From assembly GCF_048403405.1 (NCBI RefSeq), contig NZ_CP183129.1: a DNA stretch of 64,000 nucleotides; one strand, written 5' to 3'. This document shows, in pieces, positions 4,175 through 54,800 of this stretch (its first letter is position 1; every line of letters begins with the position of its first letter). Origin of the DNA: Escherichia coli. Its GTDB lineage: Bacteria; Pseudomonadota; Gammaproteobacteria; Enterobacterales; Enterobacteriaceae. The position numbers and the translations under genes were made by a program. The notes beneath the pieces were generated by a model. It saw nothing but the letters and a program-made list of their open reading frames with translations, was not told the origin of the DNA and made no database searches.

Positions 4175-5386
<1,212 letters not shown>

Positions 5387-6516: not shown

Positions 6517-8527
<2,011 letters not shown>

Positions 8528-9418
8528 ATGGAACTACGGCATTTACGCTATTTCGTCGCAGTGGCGCAGGCACTGAACTTTACCCGTGCGGCGGAAAAAC
8601 TGCATACCTCACAGCCTTCGTTAAGCAGCCAGATCCGCGATCTTGAAAACTGTGTCGGTGTTCCGTTGCTGGTGAGGGATAAGCGCAAAGTCGCGTTGAC
8701 GGCGGCGGGAGAATGTTTTCTCCAGGACGCGCTGGCAATCCTCGAACAAGCGGAAAATGCCAAATTACGGGCGCGGAAAATTGTTCAGGAAGACAGACAA
8801 TTAACCATTGGCTTTGTGCCATCGGCGGAAGTGAATTTACTGCCAAAAGTATTACCGATGTTTCGTCTCAGACAGCCAGACACCTTAATTGAGCTGGTGA
8901 GTTTAATCACCACGGAACAGGAAGAAAAAATTCGCCGTGGTGAACTCGACGTCGGCTTAATGCGCCATCCTGTTTATAGCCCGGAGATTGATTATCTGGA
9001 GCTTTTTGACGAACCATTAGTGGTGGTGTTACCGGTTGATCACCCTTTAGCACATGAAAAAGAGATCACCGCCGCGCAACTGGATGGCGTGAATTTCGTC
9101 AGTACTGATCCTGCGTATTCCGGTTCGCTTGCGCCGATCGTTAAAGCGTGGTTTGCGCAAGAAAACAGCCAGCCAAATATCGTCCAGGTAGCAACGAATA
9201 TTCTGGTGACCATGAATCTGGTGGGGATGGGGCTGGGCGTCACTTTGATACCCGGTTATATGAATAATTTTAATACCGGCCAGGTGGTATTTCGACCCAT
9301 TGCCGGAAATGTGCCTTCCATTGCTTTACTGATGGCGTGGAAGAAAGGGGAGATGAAGCCGGCATTACGCGATTTCATCGCCATTGTGCAGGAACGTTTG
9401 GCAAGCGTAACGGCATAA
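8528..9418 (+). CDS. hcaR: LysR-family transcriptional activator of hca operon
   Basis: MELRHLRYFVAVAQ... LysR HTH N-terminus; 296 aa from ATG 8528; ORF-track start 8435 is an upstream in-frame extension. Confidence 0.92.
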   Translation: MELRHLRYFVAVAQALNFTRAAEKLHTSQPSLSSQIRDLENCVGVPLLVRDKRKVALTAAGECFLQDALAILEQAENAKLRARKIVQEDRQLTIGFVPSAEVNLLPKVLPMFRLRQPDTLIELVSLITTEQEEKIRRGELDVGLMRHPVYSPEIDYLELFDEPLVVVLPVDHPLAHEKEITAAQLDGVNFVSTDPAYSGSLAPIVKAWFAQENSQPNIVQVATNILVTMNLVGMGLGVTLIPGYMNNFNTGQVVFRPIAGNVPSIALLMAWKKGEMKPALRDFIAIVQERLASVTA

Positions 9419-41405: not shown

Positions 41406-41621
41406 ATGGCACTCAACTGTCCAACCTGCAAAACCCCTCTCGAACGCAATGGCGAGACTGCCCACTGTGCAACTTGCGACAAAGACTTTACCGTCCAGGC
41501 ACTTTGCCCTGAGTGTCATCAGCCGTTACAAGTGTTAAAAGCTTGTGGTGCTGTGGACTATTTTTGCCAACATGGGCACGGTTTAATATCTAAAAAACGC
41601 GTTGAATTTGTTATTGCTTAA
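41406..41621 (+). CDS. yfgJ: Zinc-ribbon protein YfgJ
   Basis: 71 aa with CPTC...CATC...CPEC...CQHGH. Confidence 0.88.
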   Translation: MALNCPTCKTPLERNGETAHCATCDKDFTVQALCPECHQPLQVLKACGAVDYFCQHGHGLISKKRVEFVIA

Positions 41622-41830
41622 TATCATGTGAATATATTGTTTTATCATTTATATTTAATATGTGAATGGTAAAACAATCTGTTATTAGTGGAATAACTAA
41701 TGTAATTGAGTGAAATCACTAATTTAAATAATTAAGAATATATTTATTCTTTATGACATGCCTTTCTGAATAATCAGGGATACAATATTAAAGCTTATTT
41801 TTGACTGTATCATTGTCACAGGGAAAGTGC
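41622..41830 (+). promoter_or_regulatory. AT-rich upstream region of sinH-like gene (candidate promoter / nucleoid-protein silencing region)
   Basis: About 200 bp with very high A+T, at the island's left junction. Confidence 0.45.
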
Positions 41831-44008
41831 ATGCTGCGATGGAAACGCTGTATTATTCTAACATTTATCTCTGGTGCTGCTTTCGCGGCACCAGAGATAA
41901 ATGTTAAGCAAAACGAATCGTTACCTGATTTAGGTAGCCAGGCAGCACAGCAGGATGAACAAACCAACAAGGGTAAATCGCTGAAAGAGCGCGGAGCCGA
42001 TTACGTCATCAACTCCGCCACGCAAGGGTTTGAAAACTTGACCCCTGAGGCGCTGGAATCTCAGGCCAGAAGCTATCTGCAAAGTCAAATCACCTCAACC
42101 GCACAATCTTATATTGAAGACACACTCTCTCCCTACGGTAAGGTCCGTTCGAACCTCTCCATTGGCCAGGGCGGCGATCTGGATGGCAGTTCCATCGATT
42201 ATTTTGTTCCCTGGTACGATAATCAAACCACTGTTTATTTCAGTCAATTTTCTGCGCAGCGAAAAGAAGATCGTACAATCGGGAATATTGGTCTTGGGGT
42301 AAGACATAATTTTAATGAATGGTTATTGGGTGGAAATATATTTTATGATTATGATTTTACCCGAGGACATCGCCGTTTAGGTTTAGGCGGCGAAGCGTGG
42401 ACTGATTATTTAAAATTCTCTGGCAACTATTATCATCCGCTTTCTGACTGGAAAGACTCTGAAGATTTCGACTTTTATGAAGAACGCCCTGCGCGCGGCT
42501 GGGATATTCGTGCCGAAGCCTGGTTACCTTCTTATCCGCAACTGGGAGGCAAAGTTGTCTTCGAGCAATATTACGGCGATGAAGTCGCCCTTTTTGGTAC
42601 GGATAATTTGGAGAAAGATCCCTACGCGGTAACACTTGGACTGAATTATCAACCGGTGCCATTACTAACCGTTGGGGCGGACTATAAAGCGGGGACCGGA
42701 GATAACAGCGATGTCAGCATTAATGCCACTCTTAATTATCAGTTCGGCGTTCCGCTAAAAGATCAATTGGATAGCGATAAAGTGAAAGCGGCTCACTCGT
42801 TGATGGGCAGTCGTCATGATTTTGTTGAGCGTAATAACTTTATTGTTCTGGAATACAAAGAAAAAGATCCGCTTGATGTCACCCTGTGGTTAAAAGCGGA
42901 TGCCACCAACGAGCACCCTGAGTGCGTCATTAAGGACACTCCCGAAGCGGCCGTCGGGCTGGAAAAATGTAAATGGACCATTAACGCGCTTATCAACCAC
43001 CACTACAAAATTGTCGCTGCGTCATGGCAGGCGAAAAACAATGCTGCCCGCACGCTGGTTATGCCGGTTATCAAAGAGAATACCCTGACAGAGGGTAACA
43101 ATAACCACTGGAACCTGGTGCTGCCCGCCTGGCAGTACAGCTCTGACAAAGCCGAACAAGAAAAACTCAATACCTGGCGAGTACGTCTGGCACTGGAAGA
43201 TGAAAAGGGTAACCGACAGAACTCTGGCGTGGTGGAAATCACCGTTCAGCAGGACCGTAAAATAGAGTTGATTGTTAATAACATCGCGAACGTGCCGGAA
43301 GAGAACAACCACAGCCACGAAGCCAGCGCTCAGGCAGATGGCGTTGATGGTGTGGTGATGGATCTCGATGTAACCGACAGCTTTGGCGATAACACCGACC
43401 GCAATGGCGATGCGCTGCCGGAAGATAACCTCACGCCGCAGCTTTACGACGCGCAGGACAAACGAGTGACGTTAACCAACAAGCCTTGCTCGACCGACAA
43501 CCCCTGCGTTTTTATCGCTAAACAAGATAAAGAAAAGGGCACTGTCACCCTCTCCAGTACCTTACCCGGCACCTATCGCTGGAAAGCAAAAGCTGCGCCC
43601 TACGACGACAGTAACTATGTGGATGTCACTTTCCTCGGGGCAGAAATTGGTGGGCTAAATGCATTTATCTATCGTGTGGGGGCAGCTAAACCCAGCAACC
43701 TGATAGGTAAAGATAAAGAACCGCTGCCGCTCAACAACACTTATCGATTTGTTTTGTGGCGTGACAGCAATAAAGACGGTGTCTTCCAGCAGGTCGAAAA
43801 ACTGACTGACGAAGAGATGGCGCAGTACGACTACAAGTGGGAATTTACCGGCAAGAGCATCAATGGTGAAGTGGGTGCACAGGCGAACACTTCCAATGAG
43901 GACATTGTGATTCCGGCCACTAACCGCGAAGCAGCGCAAACCTATGGCGCACAAGCGGGAGATGGCTTGCAGGGATACGGTTTACGCGTGCTGTATACCA
44001 AAAAATAA
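41831..44008 (+). CDS. sinH: Inverse autotransporter (intimin/invasin family) adhesin, SinH-like
   Basis: Signal peptide MLRWKRCIILTFISGAAFA; inverse-autotransporter beta-barrel-like segment (GNIGLGVRHNF...NIFYDYDFTRGHRRLGLGGEAW); C-terminal passenger; start 41831 preferred over ORF-track 41801. Confidence 0.8.
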   Translation: MLRWKRCIILTFISGAAFAAPEINVKQNESLPDLGSQAAQQDEQTNKGKSLKERGADYVINSATQGFENLTPEALESQARSYLQSQITSTAQSYIEDTLSPYGKVRSNLSIGQGGDLDGSSIDYFVPWYDNQTTVYFSQFSAQRKEDRTIGNIGLGVRHNFNEWLLGGNIFYDYDFTRGHRRLGLGGEAWTDYLKFSGNYYHPLSDWKDSEDFDFYEERPARGWDIRAEAWLPSYPQLGGKVVFEQYYGDEVALFGTDNLEKDPYAVTLGLNYQPVPLLTVGADYKAGTGDNSDVSINATLNYQFGVPLKDQLDSDKVKAAHSLMGSRHDFVERNNFIVLEYKEKDPLDVTLWLKADATNEHPECVIKDTPEAAVGLEKCKWTINALINHHYKIVAASWQAKNNAARTLVMPVIKENTLTEGNNNHWNLVLPAWQYSSDKAEQEKLNTWRVRLALEDEKGNRQNSGVVEITVQQDRKIELIVNNIANVPEENNHSHEASAQADGVDGVVMDLDVTDSFGDNTDRNGDALPEDNLTPQLYDAQDKRVTLTNKPCSTDNPCVFIAKQDKEKGTVTLSSTLPGTYRWKAKAAPYDDSNYVDVTFLGAEIGGLNAFIYRVGAAKPSNLIGKDKEPLPLNNTYRFVLWRDSNKDGVFQQVEKLTDEEMAQYDYKWEFTGKSINGEVGAQANTSNEDIVIPATNREAAQTYGAQAGDGLQGYGLRVLYTKK

Positions 44009-44062
44009 GATTGGCGTAAGGCCAGTCGGCCAGTCGCTGAAGGTTCATTAAGGAGAGCATCA

Positions 44063-45040
44063 ATGAAGCAGGATAAAAGACGCGGTCTGACCCGGATCGC
44101 ATTGGCGCTGGCACTGGCAGGTTATTGTGTGGCACCTGTGGCGCTGGCGGAAGAAAGCGCCTGGGTCGACAGCGGCGAAACCAATATTTTCCAGGGAACC
44201 ATTCCGTGGCTCTATTCGGAAGGGGGAAGCGCTACGACAGATGCCGACCATGTAACGTTGACTTCAGATCTAAAAGGCGCTCGCCCGACAGGTAGTGAAA
44301 CGGACAAGCGTCTTTACTCGGGTGATAAATTAACCGTAAGTTGGGAAATTGGTGATACCGAAGGCGACGTGGATCTTGGGGGATTGGGCGATAACGCAAA
44401 GACTATCGATACTATCCGCTGGATGAGCTACAAGGACGCTCAGGGTAACGATCCAAAAGAGCTGGTAACGAAGGTGACCAGTTACACCCTTACCGATGCC
44501 GACCGTGGTCGTTATATCGGTATTGAAATTACGCCAACCACGCAGACCGGTACGCCAAACGTCGGGAATGCGCTGCATCTTTATGACATTTCCACTGCCA
44601 GCGGCGGCGGAAGCGACAGCGACAACGTTGCGCCAGGGCCGGTGGTTAACCAGAACCTGAAAGTCGCCATCTTTGTTGATGGTACCAGTATCAACCTTAT
44701 CAACGGCAGCACGCCAATCGAACTTGGCAAAACCTACGTGGCCAAACTGTACTCGGATGAGAACAAAAACGGCAAGTTTGATGCGGGTACCGATGCTGAC
44801 GTTACCGCCAATTATGACTTCCGTTGGGTACTTTCTGGCAGCAGCCAGCAGCTCGGCACCTCGGGTGGTATCGTTAACTCAAGCTTCGATAATAACAATC
44901 TGGTCATCCCTGCGACCAACGAAGACGCCAGAACCAACCTTAACGGCCCTGCGCGCGATGGTAAAGAAGCTCTTACCATCCCGACCAACGGCGACGGGGT
45001 ACAGGGGTACAAACTTCACATTATTTACAAACACAAATAA
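44063..45040 (+). CDS. sinI: Secreted protein SinI-like (signal peptide; shares C-terminal domain with SinH-like passenger)
   Basis: 325 aa, signal peptide ending VALA; C-terminal ~95 aa align with SinH-like C-terminus (VIPATN...DG.QGY.L...Y.K). Confidence 0.65.
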   Translation: MKQDKRRGLTRIALALALAGYCVAPVALAEESAWVDSGETNIFQGTIPWLYSEGGSATTDADHVTLTSDLKGARPTGSETDKRLYSGDKLTVSWEIGDTEGDVDLGGLGDNAKTIDTIRWMSYKDAQGNDPKELVTKVTSYTLTDADRGRYIGIEITPTTQTGTPNVGNALHLYDISTASGGGSDSDNVAPGPVVNQNLKVAIFVDGTSINLINGSTPIELGKTYVAKLYSDENKNGKFDAGTDADVTANYDFRWVLSGSSQQLGTSGGIVNSSFDNNNLVIPATNEDARTNLNGPARDGKEALTIPTNGDGVQGYKLHIIYKHK

Positions 45041-45048
45041 CGCGTACT

Positions 45049-45085
45049 CAGCAGCATTCCCGCAAGGGAATGCTGTTTCCGCATA
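45049..45085 (+). terminator. Hairpin/terminator after sinI-like gene
   Basis: cagcattccc-gcaa-gggaatgctg followed by TTTCCGCATATTTT. Confidence 0.5.
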
Positions 45086-45116
45086 TTTTGCTTAATCCCG
45101 GATTAAGCAAAATATG
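45082..45116. promoter_or_regulatory. 35-bp perfect palindrome upstream of giant gene
   Basis: catattttgcttaatcc-c-ggattaagcaaaatatg, 17-bp arms around a single central base, ~45 bp upstream of start codon. Confidence 0.45.
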
Positions 45117-45160
45117 TTGATGCGACAAGCGTCCGTTTAACAACCGGTGGAGTTTCTGTC

Positions 45161-48100
45161 ATGTCCCTGACCCTGAATAAAATCCTTGTGTTATGCGCAT
45201 TGCTGATAAGCGCAATGCTGCCTGGGTGGTCATGGGCAGAATCTGCATGGCAAGACTCTTCAGATACGGTCGGCGAATTTAACGGTACCGTGCCCACCGC
45301 CGACAGTGCCAGCATACCCGTCTACCAGGGCAGTGTCTTTCTGGATCCTGCAAAGACGCATGAGGTAGCGTTTACCGCTAAACCGAGTGAATTCAGCGCG
45401 GATATTAGCGTCTCTAAATTGCTCGTCACCAATCCGCAAGACAGAGAAGGCGATATCATTTCCACCCCACGTTGGGAAAACCAAACGCCACCGACAGTAT
45501 CTTTAGTTTGGGCGGATGCCGCGACGCCGGACACCTTACTGGACCCACAGCCAGTCGCAGATCGCTCGTTTTGCGCTCAGGGACTTGCCGGGCGTTCGCT
45601 GGTCGCCTGGGCGCAGCCTGATCCCCAACAGACCATGCCGCTGTTATATTTACTCACCTCGACGGGCTATCCCTATGAAAGTGTTCTGACGCTCGCCGAT
45701 CAGAAAGTGACGCTGAAGATTGCGCCCGCGCAGGGTGACCTTATTTCCGTCAGCGCCGCGGGCTATGACGAATCCTCCGGTGCGGCGAAAACGACGGTTG
45801 GCGGCAGTATCACGTTAACGGTCACCACCAAAGATTGCGTCGGTAATGTTGTGGGGAATATTCCTTTTGTTATCAAACGCAAAGATGCTGAAAACCGCCA
45901 GGGTGTGGTGAACAATACTGCGCCGGTAAAACTGGGCACGACCGAATTAACCACCACCGCGACGGAATATCGTGGTACTACCGATGCGAATGGTGTTGCC
46001 ACGGTTACGGTCACCCAGGCCAACGGCCCTGGTGTAAAAACGCCGTTGGTCGCGAGCCTTGCGGGTATTGCTCAGGCCAGTGAAACGGCAGTGATCTTTA
46101 CCGTCCTCACCAGCCCGGATGTCCCGCAGGCTACAATGTGGGGTCATATGCCCGATACGCTGAAGGCCCGTGATTACACTTTTAGTCGACCAAAACTGGC
46201 GGCGGAAGTCGATAATGAAGACGGTACGGTTAACGATCACAATGAAACCTGGTCCACCTTTACCTGGAGCGGCGCGGATAAACATTGCGACATTTTGCCC
46301 GGAATGCGTCAGTTCGGTGCGCTGGCGACGGTGGTGCCAACGTCAGTGCAGGATGTGGCTGGTTGGCCGATGCAGGGTAATTTCTACTGGTCATCACTGG
46401 CGGGGATGAGTGGCCAGCACCATGCGGCGGATGTTTCGAACCGCAGCGAAGCGCAAAAACCGGACGATACGACGTTTATTGTGAGCTGTGTCGATAAAGA
46501 AGCGCCCGATGTTGAACCGAAGCTGGTACTGACGCCGGGCAGTTATGATTCGACGATAAAAGCGATGAAAGTAAAGGTGGGGGAAGAGGCTTCTTTACGC
46601 CTGACGATTACCGATAGCAAGAACAACGATCAGCCGCTGGCGTACTACTACTTTTCGCTGCATCTGGATGACGGCGTTAACCGTAAGAATCAAACTGACA
46701 CCGCGTGGCAGGCGAATCCGGTACAAATAGCGGGCGGCAGTAATGTCCATCAGGTTGACGCGCATACCTATGAAGGGATCACTGATGCTAACGGAGAGGC
46801 CTCTCTGACGCTGACCCAGCCAGGCGGTGTGGGGGTGAAAACTCACATCACCGCGAGAATGCGCAGCGATTTTACCGCCTCGGATGAGAAAGACGTTATT
46901 TTTACGGTGATCACCAGCCCTGATTCCGACAAAGCGCGGATGTGGGGACATATGTTGGGCATTATTGAAGCGAATAATATCTTTAAACGCCCACGGCTGG
47001 CGGATGAAACCGACAACGAACTGGGAGCAGTGCGGGAAAATAACGAAGACTGGGCGCTGTTTGATCAGAATAGCAGTATGCAGGCTGAGTGTGGTTTAGG
47101 TCATATTCCGAGCCAAAGCTCATTGCACAGTTTGTTTGCCGCACATCCAGCCAATGTCATCGGCACCGAATATGGCTGGCCAACGTTGCAAAAAGCGTAT
47201 CTTAGTGCGGTGGAAGAGACGTCGCACGCGTCGGTGAACCTGGCCACGGGCAACATCGACACCTATTCCGGCTTTAAGCAAAACTACCTTTCTTGTTCGG
47301 GCAATGAGATGGTCGCCCAGATTGCTGCGACCACCGATCATGATGTTTCCACAAGCAGCAGAGCGCAGGCTAAAGTGGGTGAAACGATTACCATGACGGT
47401 ACGCACCTTTAATGCCTTGAATAATGCGCCCGTGCCGTATACCGCGTTCACCATCACTAAAGATATGGGGAAAAATCGTCAGGGGCAGAGCACGGGTTTC
47501 GATGATCCAACCCGCGGCGCAATCGAGATGAATGGCACGCTCTACGGAACATCGCAACCGTCTTTAGTCTATGCAGGTACTACGGATGCGCAGGGTTTTG
47601 CTACTGTGGAAATTAAGCAACCGCAAGGTGTGGGCTTAGCGACGCCGCTGAATATTGCGCCTGTAAACTCCTATATTCCCAATACTGTTAATTACAATGT
47701 GATTTTCACTACGCTCACCAGTCCGGATGCGGTTGGCGCGCAGATGTGGGGGCATATGGATGAGACGATTACCGTCGATGCATTAACCTTTGCCCGACCC
47801 CGGCTGGCTGCGGAAGTGTCCAGCCCGGACGGCACATTAACGGAAAATAACGAAGTGTGGTCGCGCGTTAGCCAGGCCAACACTTCCAGCACCAGTAAAG
47901 GTGGCTGTGGTGCCAATATGCTCCCACGCCGTTCCCAGCTTAACGCGCTCTATGATGCTAACAGCGGTAACGCCGTTCAAACGGTACACGGTTGGCCAAC
48001 GCAGCGTCAGCCCTACTGGAGCAGTTCGCCCGCGGATCAGGTGCCGCATTACTACACCATAGCCCTCAACGATGGCGCGCGGACCGTTGGCGGTAGCACG

Positions 48101-51100
48101 GCGGTTTATGTCAGTTGCCTGACGACGGCTAACAATCCTGCCAGCAGCATTACGCTGGAAGTGGTGGACCCGGCGCAGTGGAACGCGGCAGCAAATGCGG
48201 CGAAGCTGAAAAAAGGCGAAACGCTACAGGTGAAGGTGACGGTAAAAGATGCTCAGGGCAATCCATTGGGTGATATGCCTTTTACGCTGAAGCGTGGCGA
48301 TGGTTATACCCGATCAAACGAAAAACACATTGCCGGTAGCGGTGATGCGCTGGTTGCGCCGGTTGTGATCAATAGTGGCCTGGCGGATGAAACTTCGCTC
48401 AATGATACCGCCGCAGCATACAGCGCGATGACCGGTAGCGATGGCACTAAAATTCTCACTATTACCCGCCCGGATACCCATGGCACAAAAACGTCGCTGA
48501 CCGCCGCGCTCTATTCAGACACAACGAAAAAAGCGACCCTCGATACCATTTTTACCGTTGTCACCAGCCCAGACAGCAATAAAGCGAAAATGTGGGGGCA
48601 TATGCCGGAAACGGTGACGGCTGCGGATGGAACGGTCTTTAAACGCCCATTATTGTTGAAAGAGTTATCCAGTACGTCGGGTCGAACAGCGATTGCAGAA
48701 GATAATGAGGACTGGGCGCAATTTACCCAAACTCAGGCGACAAGCACATCCTCTAATGGTTGTGGTAGTGAATATGTTCCCTCTCAGGCCGGGCTGGAGT
48801 CATTGTATGAAGCCAACCGCGGCAATGCGATGAAAACGGTTCAGGGCTGGCCCGTCGCCTCAAGTTACCTTACCAGCACGACAGGCAGCAGTAGTCTGGA
48901 ACAGCGTGACTTAAAGGCCGTCAATCTCAGTTCAGGCACCAGTTCGATAATTCCATCGGCCACAAAAGAACTGCTTACCTGCCAGACGACGCCGATCGTC
49001 AAGGCTAGCCAAATCGTTCTTGAGGCTGCGGACCCCACAAAATTTGACAGTACGAATAATGTTGTCAAAGCGAAAAAAGGGGAAGAAGTCGTGGTTCGCG
49101 TGACCACTAAAGATTCGCAGGGTAACCCGGTGGGAAATACCGCGTTTACGCTTAAACGTAACCTTAGCGTCAATCGGGCAAATGCGTCTACAACGGTGAC
49201 AGCAGGCGCGCTCATCGTGACGGATGCCTGGGGTAACACGCAGAGTAATTTTTCCTCAACAACAGCACTGATTTATGGCGTTACCGGCGCAGATGGTACG
49301 ACAACACTTGCACTGAAACAGGACAATACCACGGGTTTAAAAACCGAACTGACCGCCATGCTGGATACAGATAATAACGTAAAATCAATGCTTCCGGTGG
49401 TCTTTACGGTGATAACCAGCCCCGATACCCCTAAAGCAAAATTCTGGGGGCATATGGCCGAAACGATGACCGGTGCTGGCGGGCTTATTTATAAAAGACC
49501 GTTATTGCAAGATGAGCTTTCCGTTACAACCAGTCGAAGCTCTTTTCAGGAAGATGGAGAGAGCTGGTCACTGTTCTCGCCGGACCAGTCGAACAACACA
49601 TCTGTAAATGGTTGCGGTGCAGGATATGTCCCGGTTGAAAGTGAGCTGGAGTCACTGTATGCCGATGAAGGTTACGTGCCAATACATGACGTTACGGGAT
49701 GGCCTGTATCACGCGCCTATATCTCCAGTACGGTTGTTGCCTATTACACTCAAACATTTAATTTTAAAGCGGTTTCGTTAAAAACGGGTGATGGAACGGA
49801 GGTCATGTCAAGCAGTATAGGACTGCTAAGTTGTCGGGCTACCCCAGTGGCGGTGACCAGCCACATTATTGTTGAAGCGAACGATGCGACACAATTTGTC
49901 AAAGTTGACGAAACCCTCAGCGCACTAAAACGGAAAAAAGGTGACGACGCGGTGATTCGCGTGGTGACAAAAGATGCGCAGGGAAATGTCGTACCAAATG
50001 TTCCGTTTATTCTCAAACGTGAAGGATCGACAAATCGCCAGAATGTACAGTTGTCGAACAGAACTATCACTGTAATCAACGCTGCGGGAACGTCGGCAAG
50101 AGTGGATACTCCATCAATCTCCCTTTATGCGGTGACAGGTGCAGACGGGACAGCCACGTTTACGGTAAAGCAGGATGATTCTATAGGCCTGGTAACCAAT
50201 GTGTACGCTCAGGCCTATCAGTCGAGCCTGGAATCCAACAAATTACCCGTGATGTTTACCGTGATAACCAGCCCGGATACCCCCCTGGCAAGTTACTGGG
50301 GGCATATGGCGGAAACGTTCACTACGCGTTCTGGTACTGCCTTCAAACGCCCCTTACTCTCTGCTGAAAGATCGTCGGGCCAGTCGTTTATAGAAGACAA
50401 TGAAGAGTGGGCCGTGTTGAGATCGGCAACAAAGGGGGATATCGATAAAAGCGGGTGCGATGTACATTATCAACCACTGTTAAGCGAACTACAGGCATTG
50501 TACGACGAACACCCAAGTCGTGCGATAAAGACCGATCTGGGTATTCCGGTAAATAGCTACTGGTGGGCTTACGACATGGTGGCATATGCGGGTAACTGGT
50601 ACGATCAATATATTTATCTGTTAAATGGATCAAGTGGAAGAGCGTCTTCAACCACCTCGGCATTAATGCTGTGCCTGGTAAACCCTCATCCAGAGGCGGC
50701 TTCTATTGAAATGACCTCAACGGCGGAGGATGCAACGAAAACGGCCAGCAATGATGGCAGGCCCAGCGCAACAGCGAAGAAGGGAGAGGTTATCCCGATG
50801 ACTGTTACGGTGCGAGATAGCGCAGGCAATCCACTGCCAGGTGCCAGCTTTAACCTTAAACGAGGAACTGCGCTGAACCGCGCTAAAGCTGCGTACGATG
50901 CCTCTGCAGATGATCTTACCATCATACCTGTGGAACCTACTGGGGTAACGTCAATCTTGTATGGGGATGGGACGCAGGCTCTTCTGAAGACAGGGAGCGA
51001 TGGTAAAGCTACGTTTGAGGTCAGCCAGAATAGCAGTTATGGGCTGTCAACGCCGCTCAGCGCAGAACTCATGCGCGATACCTCGAAAAGCGTCACGCTG

Positions 51101-53203
51101 GATGTCATTTTCACGGTGATAACCAGCCCGGATTCGCCAAAAGCGAAATACTGGGGCCATATGCCGGAAACGTTTACCAGTTCGGCAGGCGTGACCTTCA
51201 AGCGCCCATTACTGGCAGCGGAAGCGACTACGGGGAGCTCGGTAAACGGTAATAATGAGACATGGTCATATATATATAGTACTCAAAAAGCGACGGCAGA
51301 TTGTTCGCTGGAATATCAACCGCGCCTCAGCGAATTGCAGGGGTTATATGACGATCACCCAAACGGGGCGTTAACGAAAGATCTGGGGTTGCCGATAGCG
51401 TCAGGAAACTGGTGGATTTATGAATTGCTTAACTCCAATGGTAGCTCCTGGTATTACCAGGTCTTTAACCTAAGTACGGGACGAGCATCATCCGCACTCT
51501 CTCCGGTTGCTCTAATGCTCTGCCTGGCACAGCCTCACTCTAAGCCGTCAAGCGTTACCCTGACTTCAATAGCATTTGATGAGACGAGAACCGCAAGTAA
51601 CGGCGGTACACCTTCGGCATCGGCGAAAAAGGGCGAGACAATCCCGTTAGTCGTGACAGTAAAAGACCAAAATGGCAACCTGCTGAGTGGCGAGAGCGTG
51701 ACGCTTCAGCGGGCACAGGCGAAAAGTCGTTCAGGAATTAGGCCCTCATCGTCGGCAGATGATCTTATTGTAGATGTCATCACACCGACAGCGGTCAGCA
51801 TTCCCTTTACTCAGGATACGGCAAAATGGCTTGGCTTTACCGGCAGTGATGGCACAGTGACGTTCAATGTTACGCAAAACGCCACCACCGGCCTGGCAAC
51901 GCCGTTTACGGTCTCGCTTGCACAAGATCCGCAGATCACGTCAAACCTGGACCTGATATTTACCGTGGTCACCAGCCCTGACTCCCTGGATGCCAACTAC
52001 TGGGGCCATATGCCAGAAACGGTGACAGCGGCAAATGGAACCGTCTTTGAACGACCGAAATTGTGGAAGGAACTGCCATCGACCTCCGGGGTAAATAAAA
52101 CCAATAACAATAATGAGGACTGGCCCTATTTTTCGTCAACCACTAAAGCAAATTCCAGCCTCAGCCCTTGTGAGGAAGCCCGGCAACCGTTGCTCAGCGA
52201 TATGAAGTCACTGTATCAACGTTATCCCAATAACACCCTTACGACGGAAACTGGCTGGTCAGTTTATTATTACTGGTGGGCGCAGGATAAGACTACAGAT
52301 GGTAAAAATCAGTCGCTCAATATGAAAGATGGCACAACGACATTGAATGGTAATGCCGCTTATCAGGCGTGTCTGGTGTCTGCGCGCGCGACGGTTTCCA
52401 GCGTCACACTGACCTCAACAGCGTTTGATGCTGACAGCCAGGCGGCGAAAGTGAAAAAAGGCGAAGCCATGCCCGTTACCGTGACGGTGAAAGACAGCGC
52501 CGGGAATACGGTACCGAATGTGGAATTTACTTTGAAACGTGGCGATGCATCGCCGCGTAACGCTGGGGCGACGTTGTATGGTGATGTGGTGGCGATGGAC
52601 GATCTCATCGTTCAGCCGTTATCTGGTTCGGCTGTTACGCTGAGTGAAAGCGGTAATACCATTAGTGGCATGACAGGCGCGGATGGGACGGCAAGTTTTA
52701 CGCTCCGCCAGGATAATACCCCTGGTTATAAAACGCCACTGACGGTTACTCTGGCTAATTACGCTTCCGCGACAGACACGCTGGACGCTATTTTTACGGT
52801 ACCAACCAGCCCGAATGTTTCCTCGGCGCACTTTTGGGGACATATGGCAGACACTGTAGTGGTGAATGGTAAATCGCTACATCGACCGTTGTTAACGACA
52901 GAATTGCCGTCCGGGGCTAATCCCGTATCCTCACCGATTATTAACTACGAAAACTGGGCTTCTGCACATATCATTGATGCCAGTAAATGGGATATTGCAA
53001 GGCAGTGTGGCAGCATAGAAAATGCACCGACATACAATGAATTAGAGTTGTTGCACACTGTTTTTAATTCACTGGGATGGCCGTCTTCACCAAGTTTTCC
53101 TTATTTGTCCTCTCAACAGTGTGGGATGGACGAAGGCACTGGAGCACAGGATTGTAGTATCACGCTAATGAATAAACCGGGTCTGGTGACCTGCTTCCAG
53201 TAA
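45161..53203 (+). CDS. Giant secreted repetitive protein, RatA/RatB-like (Ig-like/adhesin-type tandem modules)
   Basis: 2680-aa uninterrupted ORF, signal peptide ...LPGWSWA; about nine ~270-aa tandem units each with (I/V)FTV(I/V)TSPD...WGHM, a Cys-containing segment and a KKGE...V.V.VKD..GN motif. Confidence 0.8.
45760..53203 (+). repeat. Intragenic tandem repeat array (~9 units of ~805-853 bp) within giant gene
   Basis: TSPD...WGHM motif recurs near 46092, 46897, 47701, 48548, 49400, 50251, 51104, 51956, 52790 (manual count). Confidence 0.75.
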
Positions 53204-53262
53204 CCAGCATGGCGCATCTGGCGTGGCCTGGGAGCCAGTGCCGGATGCGATGCTGGCGCATC

Positions 53263-54800
<1,538 letters not shown>

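Follow-up and report, generated by a model that had tools for sequence, protein, structure and literature searches.

A chromosomal sinH-sinI-ratA-like adhesin locus between yfgJ and xseA of Escherichia coli and a conserved N-terminal motif shared by SinI and Rat proteins

The interval of 11,641 bp between yfgJ and xseA (positions 41622-53262 of the 64,000-nucleotide stretch of Escherichia coli DNA analysed here, hereafter the window) is a chromosomal sinH-sinI-ratA-like adhesin locus, which is already known and has been published as ila or as GR17 xseA..yfgJ. Our overall reading, which we hold as very probable, is that this ila locus is an old cassette that was lost in K-12-like lineages, and in which SinI and the RatA-like protein would be presented by SinH. 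The same genes, in the same order and at the same site, have been described for GR17 xseA..yfgJ of APEC and UPEC and for IatB of SMS-3-5 (PMC12928451, PMC6714894, PMC12525524); nothing substantial differs, and the window represents one allele class among several. The sequence of E. coli TUM14771 is 100% identical to the window, Nissle 1917 presents the same gene order with 96% identity over the sinH-sinI stretch (window 41622-45040), and the RefSeq annotation of the identical sequence agrees on sinH, sinI and a RatA-like gene. Only 7 genomes are ≥99% identical to the window over an 18-kb core flank, indicating a rare lineage.

A preliminary description of this DNA had reported about 11.6 kb encoding three signal-peptide proteins; an ORF check of the window returned exactly the same ORF positions, and the three N-termini are Sec-like by inspection. 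The content of 41622-53262 is limited to these three genes, a second rat gene being absent and the space too small for an autotransporter of the size of shdA. The left core flank is yfgJ (41406-41621, plus strand), coding for a zinc-ribbon protein, which in the window is a deep allele with an amino acid identity to K-12 YfgJ of only 66%. The right core flank is xseA (53263-54639, minus strand, stop at 53263), coding for the exonuclease VII large subunit, the last ~30 codons of which are of an allele type other than that of K-12. In a K-12-like genome the empty site consists of convergent yfgJ and xseA overlapping by 4 bp, in agreement with the adjacency of both genes in K-12 stated previously. 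The left leader, described before as highly AT-rich and of about 200 bp, measures 209 bp with 24.4% GC (41622-41830, plus strand); it is presumed to hold the sinH promoter region and has 2.2 copies of a 22-bp repeat unit at 41680-41727, and no promoter-like site was called inside 41622-41830. At the other end, a spacer of 59 bp (53204-53262, no strand assigned) separates the convergent stops of the ratA-like gene and xseA. Within this spacer lies GC-rich palindromic sequence, REP-like in appearance by eye only.

The locus had been regarded as horizontally acquired DNA replacing the short yfgJ-xseA junction, and reviews on ila share the view of a pathogenicity island inserted at this junction in ExPEC ancestors. 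The comparison of GC and GC3 with the flanking core genes, which had been proposed as a check, renders this doubtful: the island has 50.9% GC and its flanks 51-53% (0.509 vs 0.513-0.530), the GC3 of its genes is 0.51-0.57 vs 0.54-0.56 in the neighbouring core genes, and within the locus only the 209-bp leader is AT-rich. No tRNA or tmRNA was found in 30000-64000, antisense ORFs inside the island matched no NCBIfam family, no integrase, transposase or other mobility protein family was detected, and the direct or inverted repeats pairing the borders did not exceed 16-28-nt matches such as chance alone would produce. The absence of mobility genes and of flanking direct repeats noted earlier thus stands. 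With no tRNA, integrase, transposase, border repeats or deviant GC, a classical mobile pathogenicity island was rejected.

The distribution of the locus has also been determined. Among 5426 complete E. coli genomes, 1683 (about a third) carry sinH-sinI, in allele classes that span ≥99% to ~78% nucleotide identity, and sinH-sinI-ratA-like is absent from K-12-like genomes; the locus is therefore not a feature of essentially all E. coli, a distribution that the preliminary description had named as one that would refute it. Carriage reported in the literature is 98% in phylogroup B2, 100% in F, 100% in G and 48-67% in D, with none in commensal A/B1 strains (PMC9937491, PMC8281228). At the yfgJ/xseA site, 17 loci share the gene order der-yfgJ-sinH-sinI-rat-xseA-guaB; they come from Escherichia, Citrobacter, Pseudocitrobacter, Superficieibacter and one further Enterobacteriaceae genome, while Salmonella was covered through the literature (PMC3591323, PMC9861973). 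The Escherichia carriers at this site include E. albertii, E. whittamii and other Escherichia lineages, and an AT-rich leader (27-34% GC) occupies the same position in 16/16 uninterrupted related loci. Across genera sinH, sinI and rat are strictly linked, also in Leminorella and Buttiauxella, where the loci lie outside the yfgJ/xseA site. The Salmonella CS54 island (xseA-shdA-ratB-ratA-sinI-sinH-yfgK) shares with the window both the site and the sinH-sinI-rat core, with rat adjoining sinI (PMC3591323, PMC9861973). However, the E. coli locus lacks shdA and has one rat gene instead of two, so that the full CS54 gene set is not present, and the identity between the SinI proteins of the window and of Salmonella amounts to only 44-47%. 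The location of CS54, between xseA and yfgK(der)/yfgJ (PMC9861973, PMC3591323), is that of the window locus too, and the link to CS54 at the same xseA-flanking site that had been drawn before is well founded (PMC3591323, PMC9861973, PMC12928451).

The presence/absence pattern among E. coli, the AT-rich leader and the association with ExPEC phylogroups (PMC9937491) are all compatible with an insertion. The strongly divergent 3' ends of yfgJ and xseA between island and empty haplotypes would likewise be expected from a block brought in by recombination, and the 55% difference between SinI types within Escherichia points to allele exchange. Nevertheless, the K-12-type XseA C-terminus is found in island-carrying Citrobacter loci too, meaning that the flank alleles do not track presence or absence of the island. 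An insertion in ExPEC ancestors is further opposed by the lack of integrase, transposase, tRNA and border repeat, by the core-like GC and GC3, by identical synteny in at least five genera and by the occurrence of the island in the outgroups E. albertii and E. whittamii. Within E. coli, its presence in phylogroups regarded as early-branching also counts against an insertion. The synteny across 17 loci goes most of the way to what would refute an insertion, namely a cassette present in all close outgroups and in basal E. coli with gene trees congruent with the species tree, and we consider an insertion unlikely. Core-like GC and GC3 together with the same gene order in other genera make the empty K-12 site more simply a loss. 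In the Escherichia/Citrobacter/Salmonella group, the locus would accordingly be an old, non-mobile cassette between the convergent yfgJ and xseA; its alleles have probably been shuffled by homologous recombination, and E. coli lineages including K-12 have probably lost it. This polarity is an argument from parsimony. Against it, the mosaic yfgJ and xseA 3' alleles show repeated recombination at the site, and homologous recombination may instead have brought the locus into Escherichia long ago.

The first gene of the cassette, sinH (41831-44008, plus strand), encodes 725 aa from an ATG at 41831, which is also the RefSeq start, within an ORF that spans 41801-44008. As judged from its sequence, SinH is an intimin-like type Ve inverse autotransporter, in which an N-terminal beta-barrel of the 12-stranded type, as in the invasin/intimin family, is followed by a passenger at the C-terminus. 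A signal peptide (aa 1-19), in which the N-terminus MLRWKRCIILTFISGAAFA followed by APE resembles a Sec signal peptide by inspection, precedes the IAT beta-barrel (aa 63-336, nt 42017-42838), and the passenger of ~390 aa (aa ~337-725) lies C-terminal to the barrel. SinH scores 1489 bits against NCBIfam NF033423 (cut-off 999) and covers profile positions 1-730 of 730; the barrel matches Pfam IAT_beta over aa 63-336 with E=2.3e-108, and its likeness to the intimin/invasin adhesins extends to the solved invasin/intimin barrels PDB 4e1t and 4e1s (E=1.7e-73 and 7.1e-65). A near-perfect 22-bp hairpin (41859-41906, plus strand; folding z=-6.7) in the signal-peptide-coding part of sinH is retained in Escherichia alleles, that of E. 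albertii showing compensatory changes. The E. coli protein has been reported to be surface-localised with a surface-exposed passenger (PMC9937491), and to be a surface adhesin/invasin, a UPEC factor and a protective ExPEC vaccine antigen (PMC9937491, PMC6714894, PMC12525524). The components had previously been described as individually poorly characterised, which holds for SinI and the RatA-like protein but not for SinH, given the work on UPEC and on vaccination in these same reports.

A different role for SinH was argued by Heinz et al. 2016 (PMC4943183), in which the protein acts mainly as a translocator with a periplasmic passenger serving as substrate-binding module, and not as a surface adhesin. 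The C-terminal ~100 aa of SinH (nt 43697-44005) are homologous to the SinI C-terminus (36% identity between SinI 211-325 and SinH 623-725, E=4e-13), which would suit domain-domain recognition of this kind. A periplasmic passenger seems improbable, however, given the reported surface location of SinH, the protection of mice by antibodies against SinH domain 3 (PMC9937491, PMC12525524) and the biofilm formation conferred by IatB, the E. coli SinH orthologue, without the downstream gene (Goh 2019; PMC6714894); data of the surface-accessibility type for the passenger are already given in the vaccine papers.

The sinI gene (44063-45040, plus strand) starts 55 bp past the sinH stop; its product of 325 aa is an autotransporter-associated protein of the SinI family (336.6 bits against NF040711, cut-off 165), in which no IAT_beta domain was found with Pfam. 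A signal peptide, by inspection, is followed by a motif shared with Rat proteins (aa 30-49, nt 44150-44209) and two Ig-like beta-sandwich domains, and the AF2 model has a pLDDT of 86.5. The RatA-like gene (45161-53203, plus strand) encodes a giant repeat protein of 2680 aa that scores 5382 bits against NF011844/PRK15316 (cut-off 3870), with aa 1-2680 aligned on profile positions 1-2683. Its signal peptide (aa 1-26, by inspection) precedes the motif (aa 27-46, nt 45239-45298) and an N-terminal domain that reaches aa 213, and aa 214-2654 (nt 45800-53122) comprise nine tandem BIg21 + InvE adhesion-domain units, with nine copies each of Pfam PF05688 and PF05689 (BIg21/InvE_AD; DUF823/DUF824) and, at the DNA level, a repeat period of 804-855 nt. 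Each of these units has a match in the Ig-like plus adhesion domain of Yersinia pseudotuberculosis InvE (PDB 5n40), where the adhesion domain forms the tip of a passenger anchored by a barrel. The RatA-like protein, by contrast, repeats this domain nine times and has no barrel; SinI and the RatA-like protein both carry a signal peptide and both lack a barrel. Assignment to the equivalogs of Salmonella RatA (NF011843, 2094 bits, cut-off 3700) and RatB (NF011842, 2273 bits, cut-off 4079) was rejected. The SinH, SinI and RatA-like identities put forward earlier were confirmed, all three proteins scoring above curated NCBIfam cut-offs, and these family scores already exclude a lack of similarity to SinH, SinI or Rat proteins.

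The motif shared by SinI and Rat proteins is a conserved stretch of ~20 residues at the mature N-terminus, with the consensus LKxGxWQ-x4-[ST]T-x-x-I-[QN]-G-T-[VIP]-P, present in the window as the variant AW[VQ]DS..T...F[QN]GT[IV]P. It was aligned between both families by hhalign with E=3e-5, the cross-family profile matches hold in both directions, E reaching 5e-7 and 4e-6, and the motif is in register across 40 sequences from 20 loci. All checked hits from a search of 1.84 billion representative proteins belong to the SinI or Rat family; the restriction to these families applies to the hits checked. The motif is nearly invariant, its G and P being invariant in 101 SinI sequences, and the rest of SinI goes down to 31-45% identity. 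No mention of it was found in the literature on SinH, SinI and Rat examined, and the Rat N-terminal region was termed "highly divergent" by Heinz 2016 (PMC4943183).

That SinH exports partner proteins has been proposed earlier (PMC4943183, PMC6714894), and the shared motif provides new support for this idea. SinI and the RatA-like protein would reach the periplasm via Sec, and SinH would then present them on the cell surface or release them there, in the manner of ZirT with ZirS/ZirU, the recognised element presumably being the N-terminal motif. In the Salmonella ZirT-ZirS-ZirU system, too, a barrel protein of the inverse-autotransporter type precedes Ig-like proteins that have no barrel and are exported via Sec; ZirT-dependent secretion of ZirS has been shown (PMC2270342) whereas that by SinH was only hypothesised (PMC4943183), and the analogy to SinH was drawn before (PMC4943183, PMC6714894). 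The match of SinI to the ZirU family is weak (E=5e-7, 30.1 bits) and falls below the cut-off of 100, thus SinI is not a ZirU member, and the putative substrate at the window locus would differ from those of ZirTSU in being a protein of 2680 aa. We tentatively suggest, as a possibility with clearly less than even chances, that the motif might be a dedicated tag recruiting barrel-less SinI and Rat proteins to SinH for surface display or release.

Two hairpins are found in the sinI-ratA spacer. In hairpin 1 (45050-45077, plus strand), which resembles an intrinsic terminator, a short U-run comes after a GC-rich stem, and 6/9 pairs show compensatory changes across 15 loci. Hairpin 2 (45081-45117, plus strand) is a perfect 17-bp palindrome, the inner arms of which (TTTGCTTA/TAAGCAAA) are almost constant across genera while the outer stem covaries. 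Co-transcription of sinH-sinI is reported in the portion of PMC12525524 that cites Shea 2022; sinH and sinI would then form one transcript, and the terminator-like hairpin may lower read-through into the ratA-like gene. As candidate control points, the conserved hairpins may affect the expression of this 8-kb gene.

The terminator-like hairpin between sinI and ratA also fits a situation in which SinI and the RatA-like protein are independent of SinH, remaining in the periplasm or envelope or using another outer-membrane route, and the motif reflects ancestry or the structure of the first domain; this is quite conceivable, if somewhat short of an even chance. The SinI model has the motif well ordered and packed onto the first domain (pLDDT 80-93), for which reason it may be structural and not a free tag. 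No SinH column was found that separates loci of the two motif subtypes, hence there is no co-evolution signal naming SinH as receptor, and IatB is functional without the downstream gene (PMC6714894). In the portion of PMC3680342 that cites Kingsley 2003, Salmonella ratA and sinI mutants are listed without a virulence role. On the other hand, the first half of the motif has a pLDDT <50 in the RatA-like model, as expected for a free segment, and independence from SinH is difficult to reconcile with the strict linkage of the three genes even in Leminorella and Buttiauxella, with a motif that hardly varies in an otherwise divergent SinI and is confined to SinI and Rat among the checked hits, or with the ZirT/ZirS/ZirU precedent (PMC2270342, PMC4943183).

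The locus matters for reasons that are already known: SinH marks ExPEC lineages, acts as a colonisation factor and is a candidate for vaccines. If the cassette is ancestral at the yfgJ/xseA site, the "ExPEC association" would reflect phylogeny rather than acquisition of virulence DNA. The N-terminal motif is a candidate tag through which translocation of SinI and Rat proteins by SinH could be tested; were it to act as such, it would be to type Ve secretion what the TPS domain is to two-partner secretion, and would offer a direct handle on the export of separate substrates, one of them of 2680 aa, by an inverse autotransporter.

Between yfgJ (41406-41621, plus strand) and xseA (53263-54639, minus strand), the interval 41622-53262 (11,641 bp) holds three plus-strand genes, a layout claimed in the preliminary description and found again in the ORF map: sinH (41801-44008; the RefSeq start is the ATG at 41831, giving 725 aa), sinI (44063-45040; 325 aa) and a RatA-like gene read as a single ORF (45161-53203; 2680 aa). 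The gene calls were also right, since each product lies above the NCBIfam curated cut-off used for its assignment, with 1489 bits for SinH (cut-off 999), 336.6 bits for the SinI family (cut-off 165) and 5382 bits for the RatA-like family PRK15316 (cut-off 3870), the last alignment running end to end. The giant protein also matches the Salmonella models of RatA and RatB, but under their cut-offs. Antisense ORFs within the island matched no protein family.

Residues 63-336 of SinH form an inverse-autotransporter barrel (Pfam), which matches the solved barrels of invasin and intimin at E=1.7e-73 and 7.1e-65, respectively. The RatA-like protein consists of an N-terminal domain of ~190 aa followed by nine pairs of BIg21 and InvE adhesion domains, and in the DNA these nine units repeat every 804-855 nt; one of them matches the solved structure of InvE, a Yersinia adhesin (PDB 5n40). 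SinH and SinI share a homologous C-terminus of ~100 residues (36% identity, E=4e-13). The AlphaFold model of SinI (pLDDT 86.5) shows two beta-sandwich domains, for which a fold comparison with solved structures returned nothing at E≤0.001 and only a generic Ig/FN3-like resemblance; a sequence search of SinI against the PDB gave no match. By inspection only, the N-termini of all three proteins show a charged start, a hydrophobic core and an AxA-type cleavage site. Within the SinI signal peptide (44117-44137, aa 19-25), the segment AGYC..P shows no variation across 18 aligned sequences and is retained by at least 90% of 101; such conservation is unusual in the core of a signal peptide, and the segment is no canonical lipobox.

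The sinH-sinI-ratA locus is already known and is not new. IatB was described as the E. coli orthologue of SinH by Goh 2019, where the analogy with ZirTSU was drawn (PMC6714894), and 'GR17 xseA..yfgJ' is listed in a 2026 genome paper on APEC, which regards the ila cluster (sinH, sinI, ratA) as probably derived from CS54 (PMC12928451). Clark 2021 and Xing 2023, who developed SinH as a vaccine antigen, reported the locus in 98% of phylogroup B2, 100% of F and G and 48-67% of D, and did not detect it in commensal strains of phylogroups A and B1 (PMC8281228, PMC9937491). Counting carriage at ≥80% of its length, sinH-sinI is present in 1683 of 5426 complete E. coli genomes, in allele classes that range from ≥99% down to ~78% nucleotide identity; the remaining genomes give only paralogue matches, such as fdeC and yeeJ. 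E. coli TUM14771 shows 100% identity to the window, and RefSeq annotates the same three genes there. The window's lineage is rare, with relatives at ~98.3-98.5% that include strains ST2747 and PCN033, and its gene order is identical to that of Nissle 1917. The two flanking genes, yfgJ and xseA, converge in a K-12-like genome with an overlap of 4 bp. A 3.1-kb contig labelled 'MAG: Collinsella sp.' carries proteins 98% identical to E. coli SinH, SinI and RatA, a label that most likely reflects a binning error.

The locus had been regarded in the preliminary description as an acquired island, a polarity that is probably wrong. The GC content of the whole island is 50.9%, against 51.3-53.0% in the flanks, and GC3 lies at 0.51-0.57 in its three genes, overlapping the 0.54-0.56 of der, bamB, xseA and guaB; the sinH leader (41622-41830) has 24.4% GC. 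No mobility proteins were found at the island, no tRNA or tmRNA lies between 30 and 64 kb of the window, and no direct or inverted repeats pair both borders above chance-level matches of 16-28 nt. A SinI profile scan of one genome per species returned 23 loci, onto which the window proteins were mapped. The order der-yfgJ-sinH-sinI-rat-xseA-guaB is kept in E. coli, E. whittamii, two other Escherichia lineages, three Pseudocitrobacter, five Citrobacter, two Superficieibacter and one further Enterobacteriaceae genome, and an E. albertii contig opens with yfgJ-sinH-sinI and breaks off within the rat gene. Leminorella and Buttiauxella carry linked homologues of sinH and sinI at a different site, joined in Leminorella and in one Buttiauxella locus by a giant rat-like gene, and a short Lelliottia locus retains only the 3' end of sinH and sinI. 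Because of the conserved order across genera, the core-like composition and the lack of mobility features, the simplest reading is that of an ancestral cassette lost by K-12-like E. coli. The Salmonella CS54 island has the order xseA-shdA-ratB-ratA-sinI-sinH at the site xseA-yfgK (PMC3591323, PMC9861973); since the scan returned no Salmonella loci, this comparison is based on protein matches and the literature.

The site has also undergone repeated recombination. Evidence for this comes from three Escherichia loci in which SinH is ~88% identical to that of the window and SinI only 45%, and from YfgJ (41406-41621) and the last ~30 residues of XseA (53263-53360), which fall into deep allele types (loci L001 and L004-L025 compared) that follow neither the species tree nor island presence: at the XseA end, K-12 resembles Citrobacter and Superficieibacter, and the window resembles Pseudocitrobacter. 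Such recombination keeps alive a minority explanation, in which the cassette would be an old import brought in by homologous recombination; ancestry with loss in K-12-like strains is nonetheless the reading preferred here. Six loci (L007 and L010-L014, from Citrobacter, Superficieibacter and one further Enterobacteriaceae genome) have der and yfgJ spaced by an additional 2-5 kb that is absent in Escherichia. In E. coli E69, ~1.6 kb (7146-8792 of that locus) separates yfgJ from a sinH missing its first ~218 codons, probably through an insertion or rearrangement.

Conserved hairpins are found within the cassette. The 120-bp sinI-ratA spacer contains two plus-strand hairpins (45050-45117) that are kept, with covariation, across 15 loci of four named genera and one further Enterobacteriaceae genome; 96% of cells are paired and 12 of the 28 pairs show compensatory changes, values reached by 0 of 500 shuffles, and slid controls pair 39-51%. 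The first hairpin resembles an intrinsic terminator with a short U-run, in keeping with the reported co-transcript of sinH and sinI. The second, a perfect palindrome of 17 bp, has nearly invariant inner arms, TTTGCTTA and TAAGCAAA, and precedes a conserved GTTGA. In Escherichia sp. E1V33 this spacer measures 290 bp (4553-4842 of that locus) against the usual ~115 bp and carries a ~175-bp REP-like-looking insertion between two copies of the first hairpin. Escherichia alleles retain another near-perfect hairpin of 22 bp (41859-41906, plus strand; z=-6.7) in the part of sinH encoding the signal peptide; E. albertii has compensatory changes there, and other genera have a shorter version. Rfam holds no family for any of these hairpins, its only match being a chance miRNA hit on the sinH hairpin (E=0.55). 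The RfaH ops element (GGCGGTAGNNTG) has no site in the leader or spacer; the only one in the island, with one mismatch, lies inside ratA, and the window-wide count does not exceed chance. A scan for promoter and terminator consensus gave counts equal to those of shuffled sequence and nothing useful in the sinH leader. At 41680-41727 this leader carries 2.2 copies of a 22-bp unit, each copy with a short palindrome (TTAGT..ACTAA and AGTGA..TCACT); the repeat may be a regulator site and is poorly conserved among other alleles. Between the stop codons of the RatA-like gene and xseA lie 59 bp (53204-53262) of GC-rich, palindromic sequence that is REP-like in appearance and may act as a bidirectional terminator.

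Judged from sequence, the locus encodes one barrel protein and two predicted exported proteins that have no barrel. SinH is surface-exposed, with a role in adhesion, invasion and colonisation according to the literature, and it has been proposed as the translocator of SinI and Rat-like proteins (Heinz 2016, PMC4943183); SinI and the RatA-like protein would then be displayed at the surface or released via SinH. This export gains new support from a motif common to the mature N-termini of both proteins (SinI aa 30-49, 44150-44209; RatA-like aa 27-46, 45239-45298; plus strand), found at the same positions in loci L004-L025. It stands directly after the signal peptide, following ...ALA in SinI (EESAWVDSGETNIFQGTIPW) and ...SWA in the RatA-like protein (20 residues). 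A gapless alignment of both families across 20 loci reads LKxGxWQ....[ST]T..I[QN]GT.P, with a GT.P core in which neither G nor P varies among 101 SinI sequences and 23 Rat N-termini. A profile-profile comparison of SinI and Rat gave E=3e-5 over 22 columns; a profile of the SinI motif only reaches Rat N-termini at values down to E=5e-7, and the reverse search down to 4e-6. Cross-family motif profiles found nothing close among the other ORFs of the window. Searched against 1.84 billion representative proteins, the joint profile gave 58 matches at E≤0.001, of which the seven checked all belong to the SinI or Rat family; single-stretch matches are placed at residues ~14-69. Moreover, two motif subtypes switch jointly in SinI and Rat within a locus. 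No SinH alignment columns separating the loci of the two subtypes were found, and the motif is ordered in the SinI AlphaFold model, although its first half has pLDDT <50 in the RatA-like model; the former result and the ordered motif in SinI argue for caution on SinH-dependent export. The shared N-terminal motif is the sole lead of this locus worth an experiment.
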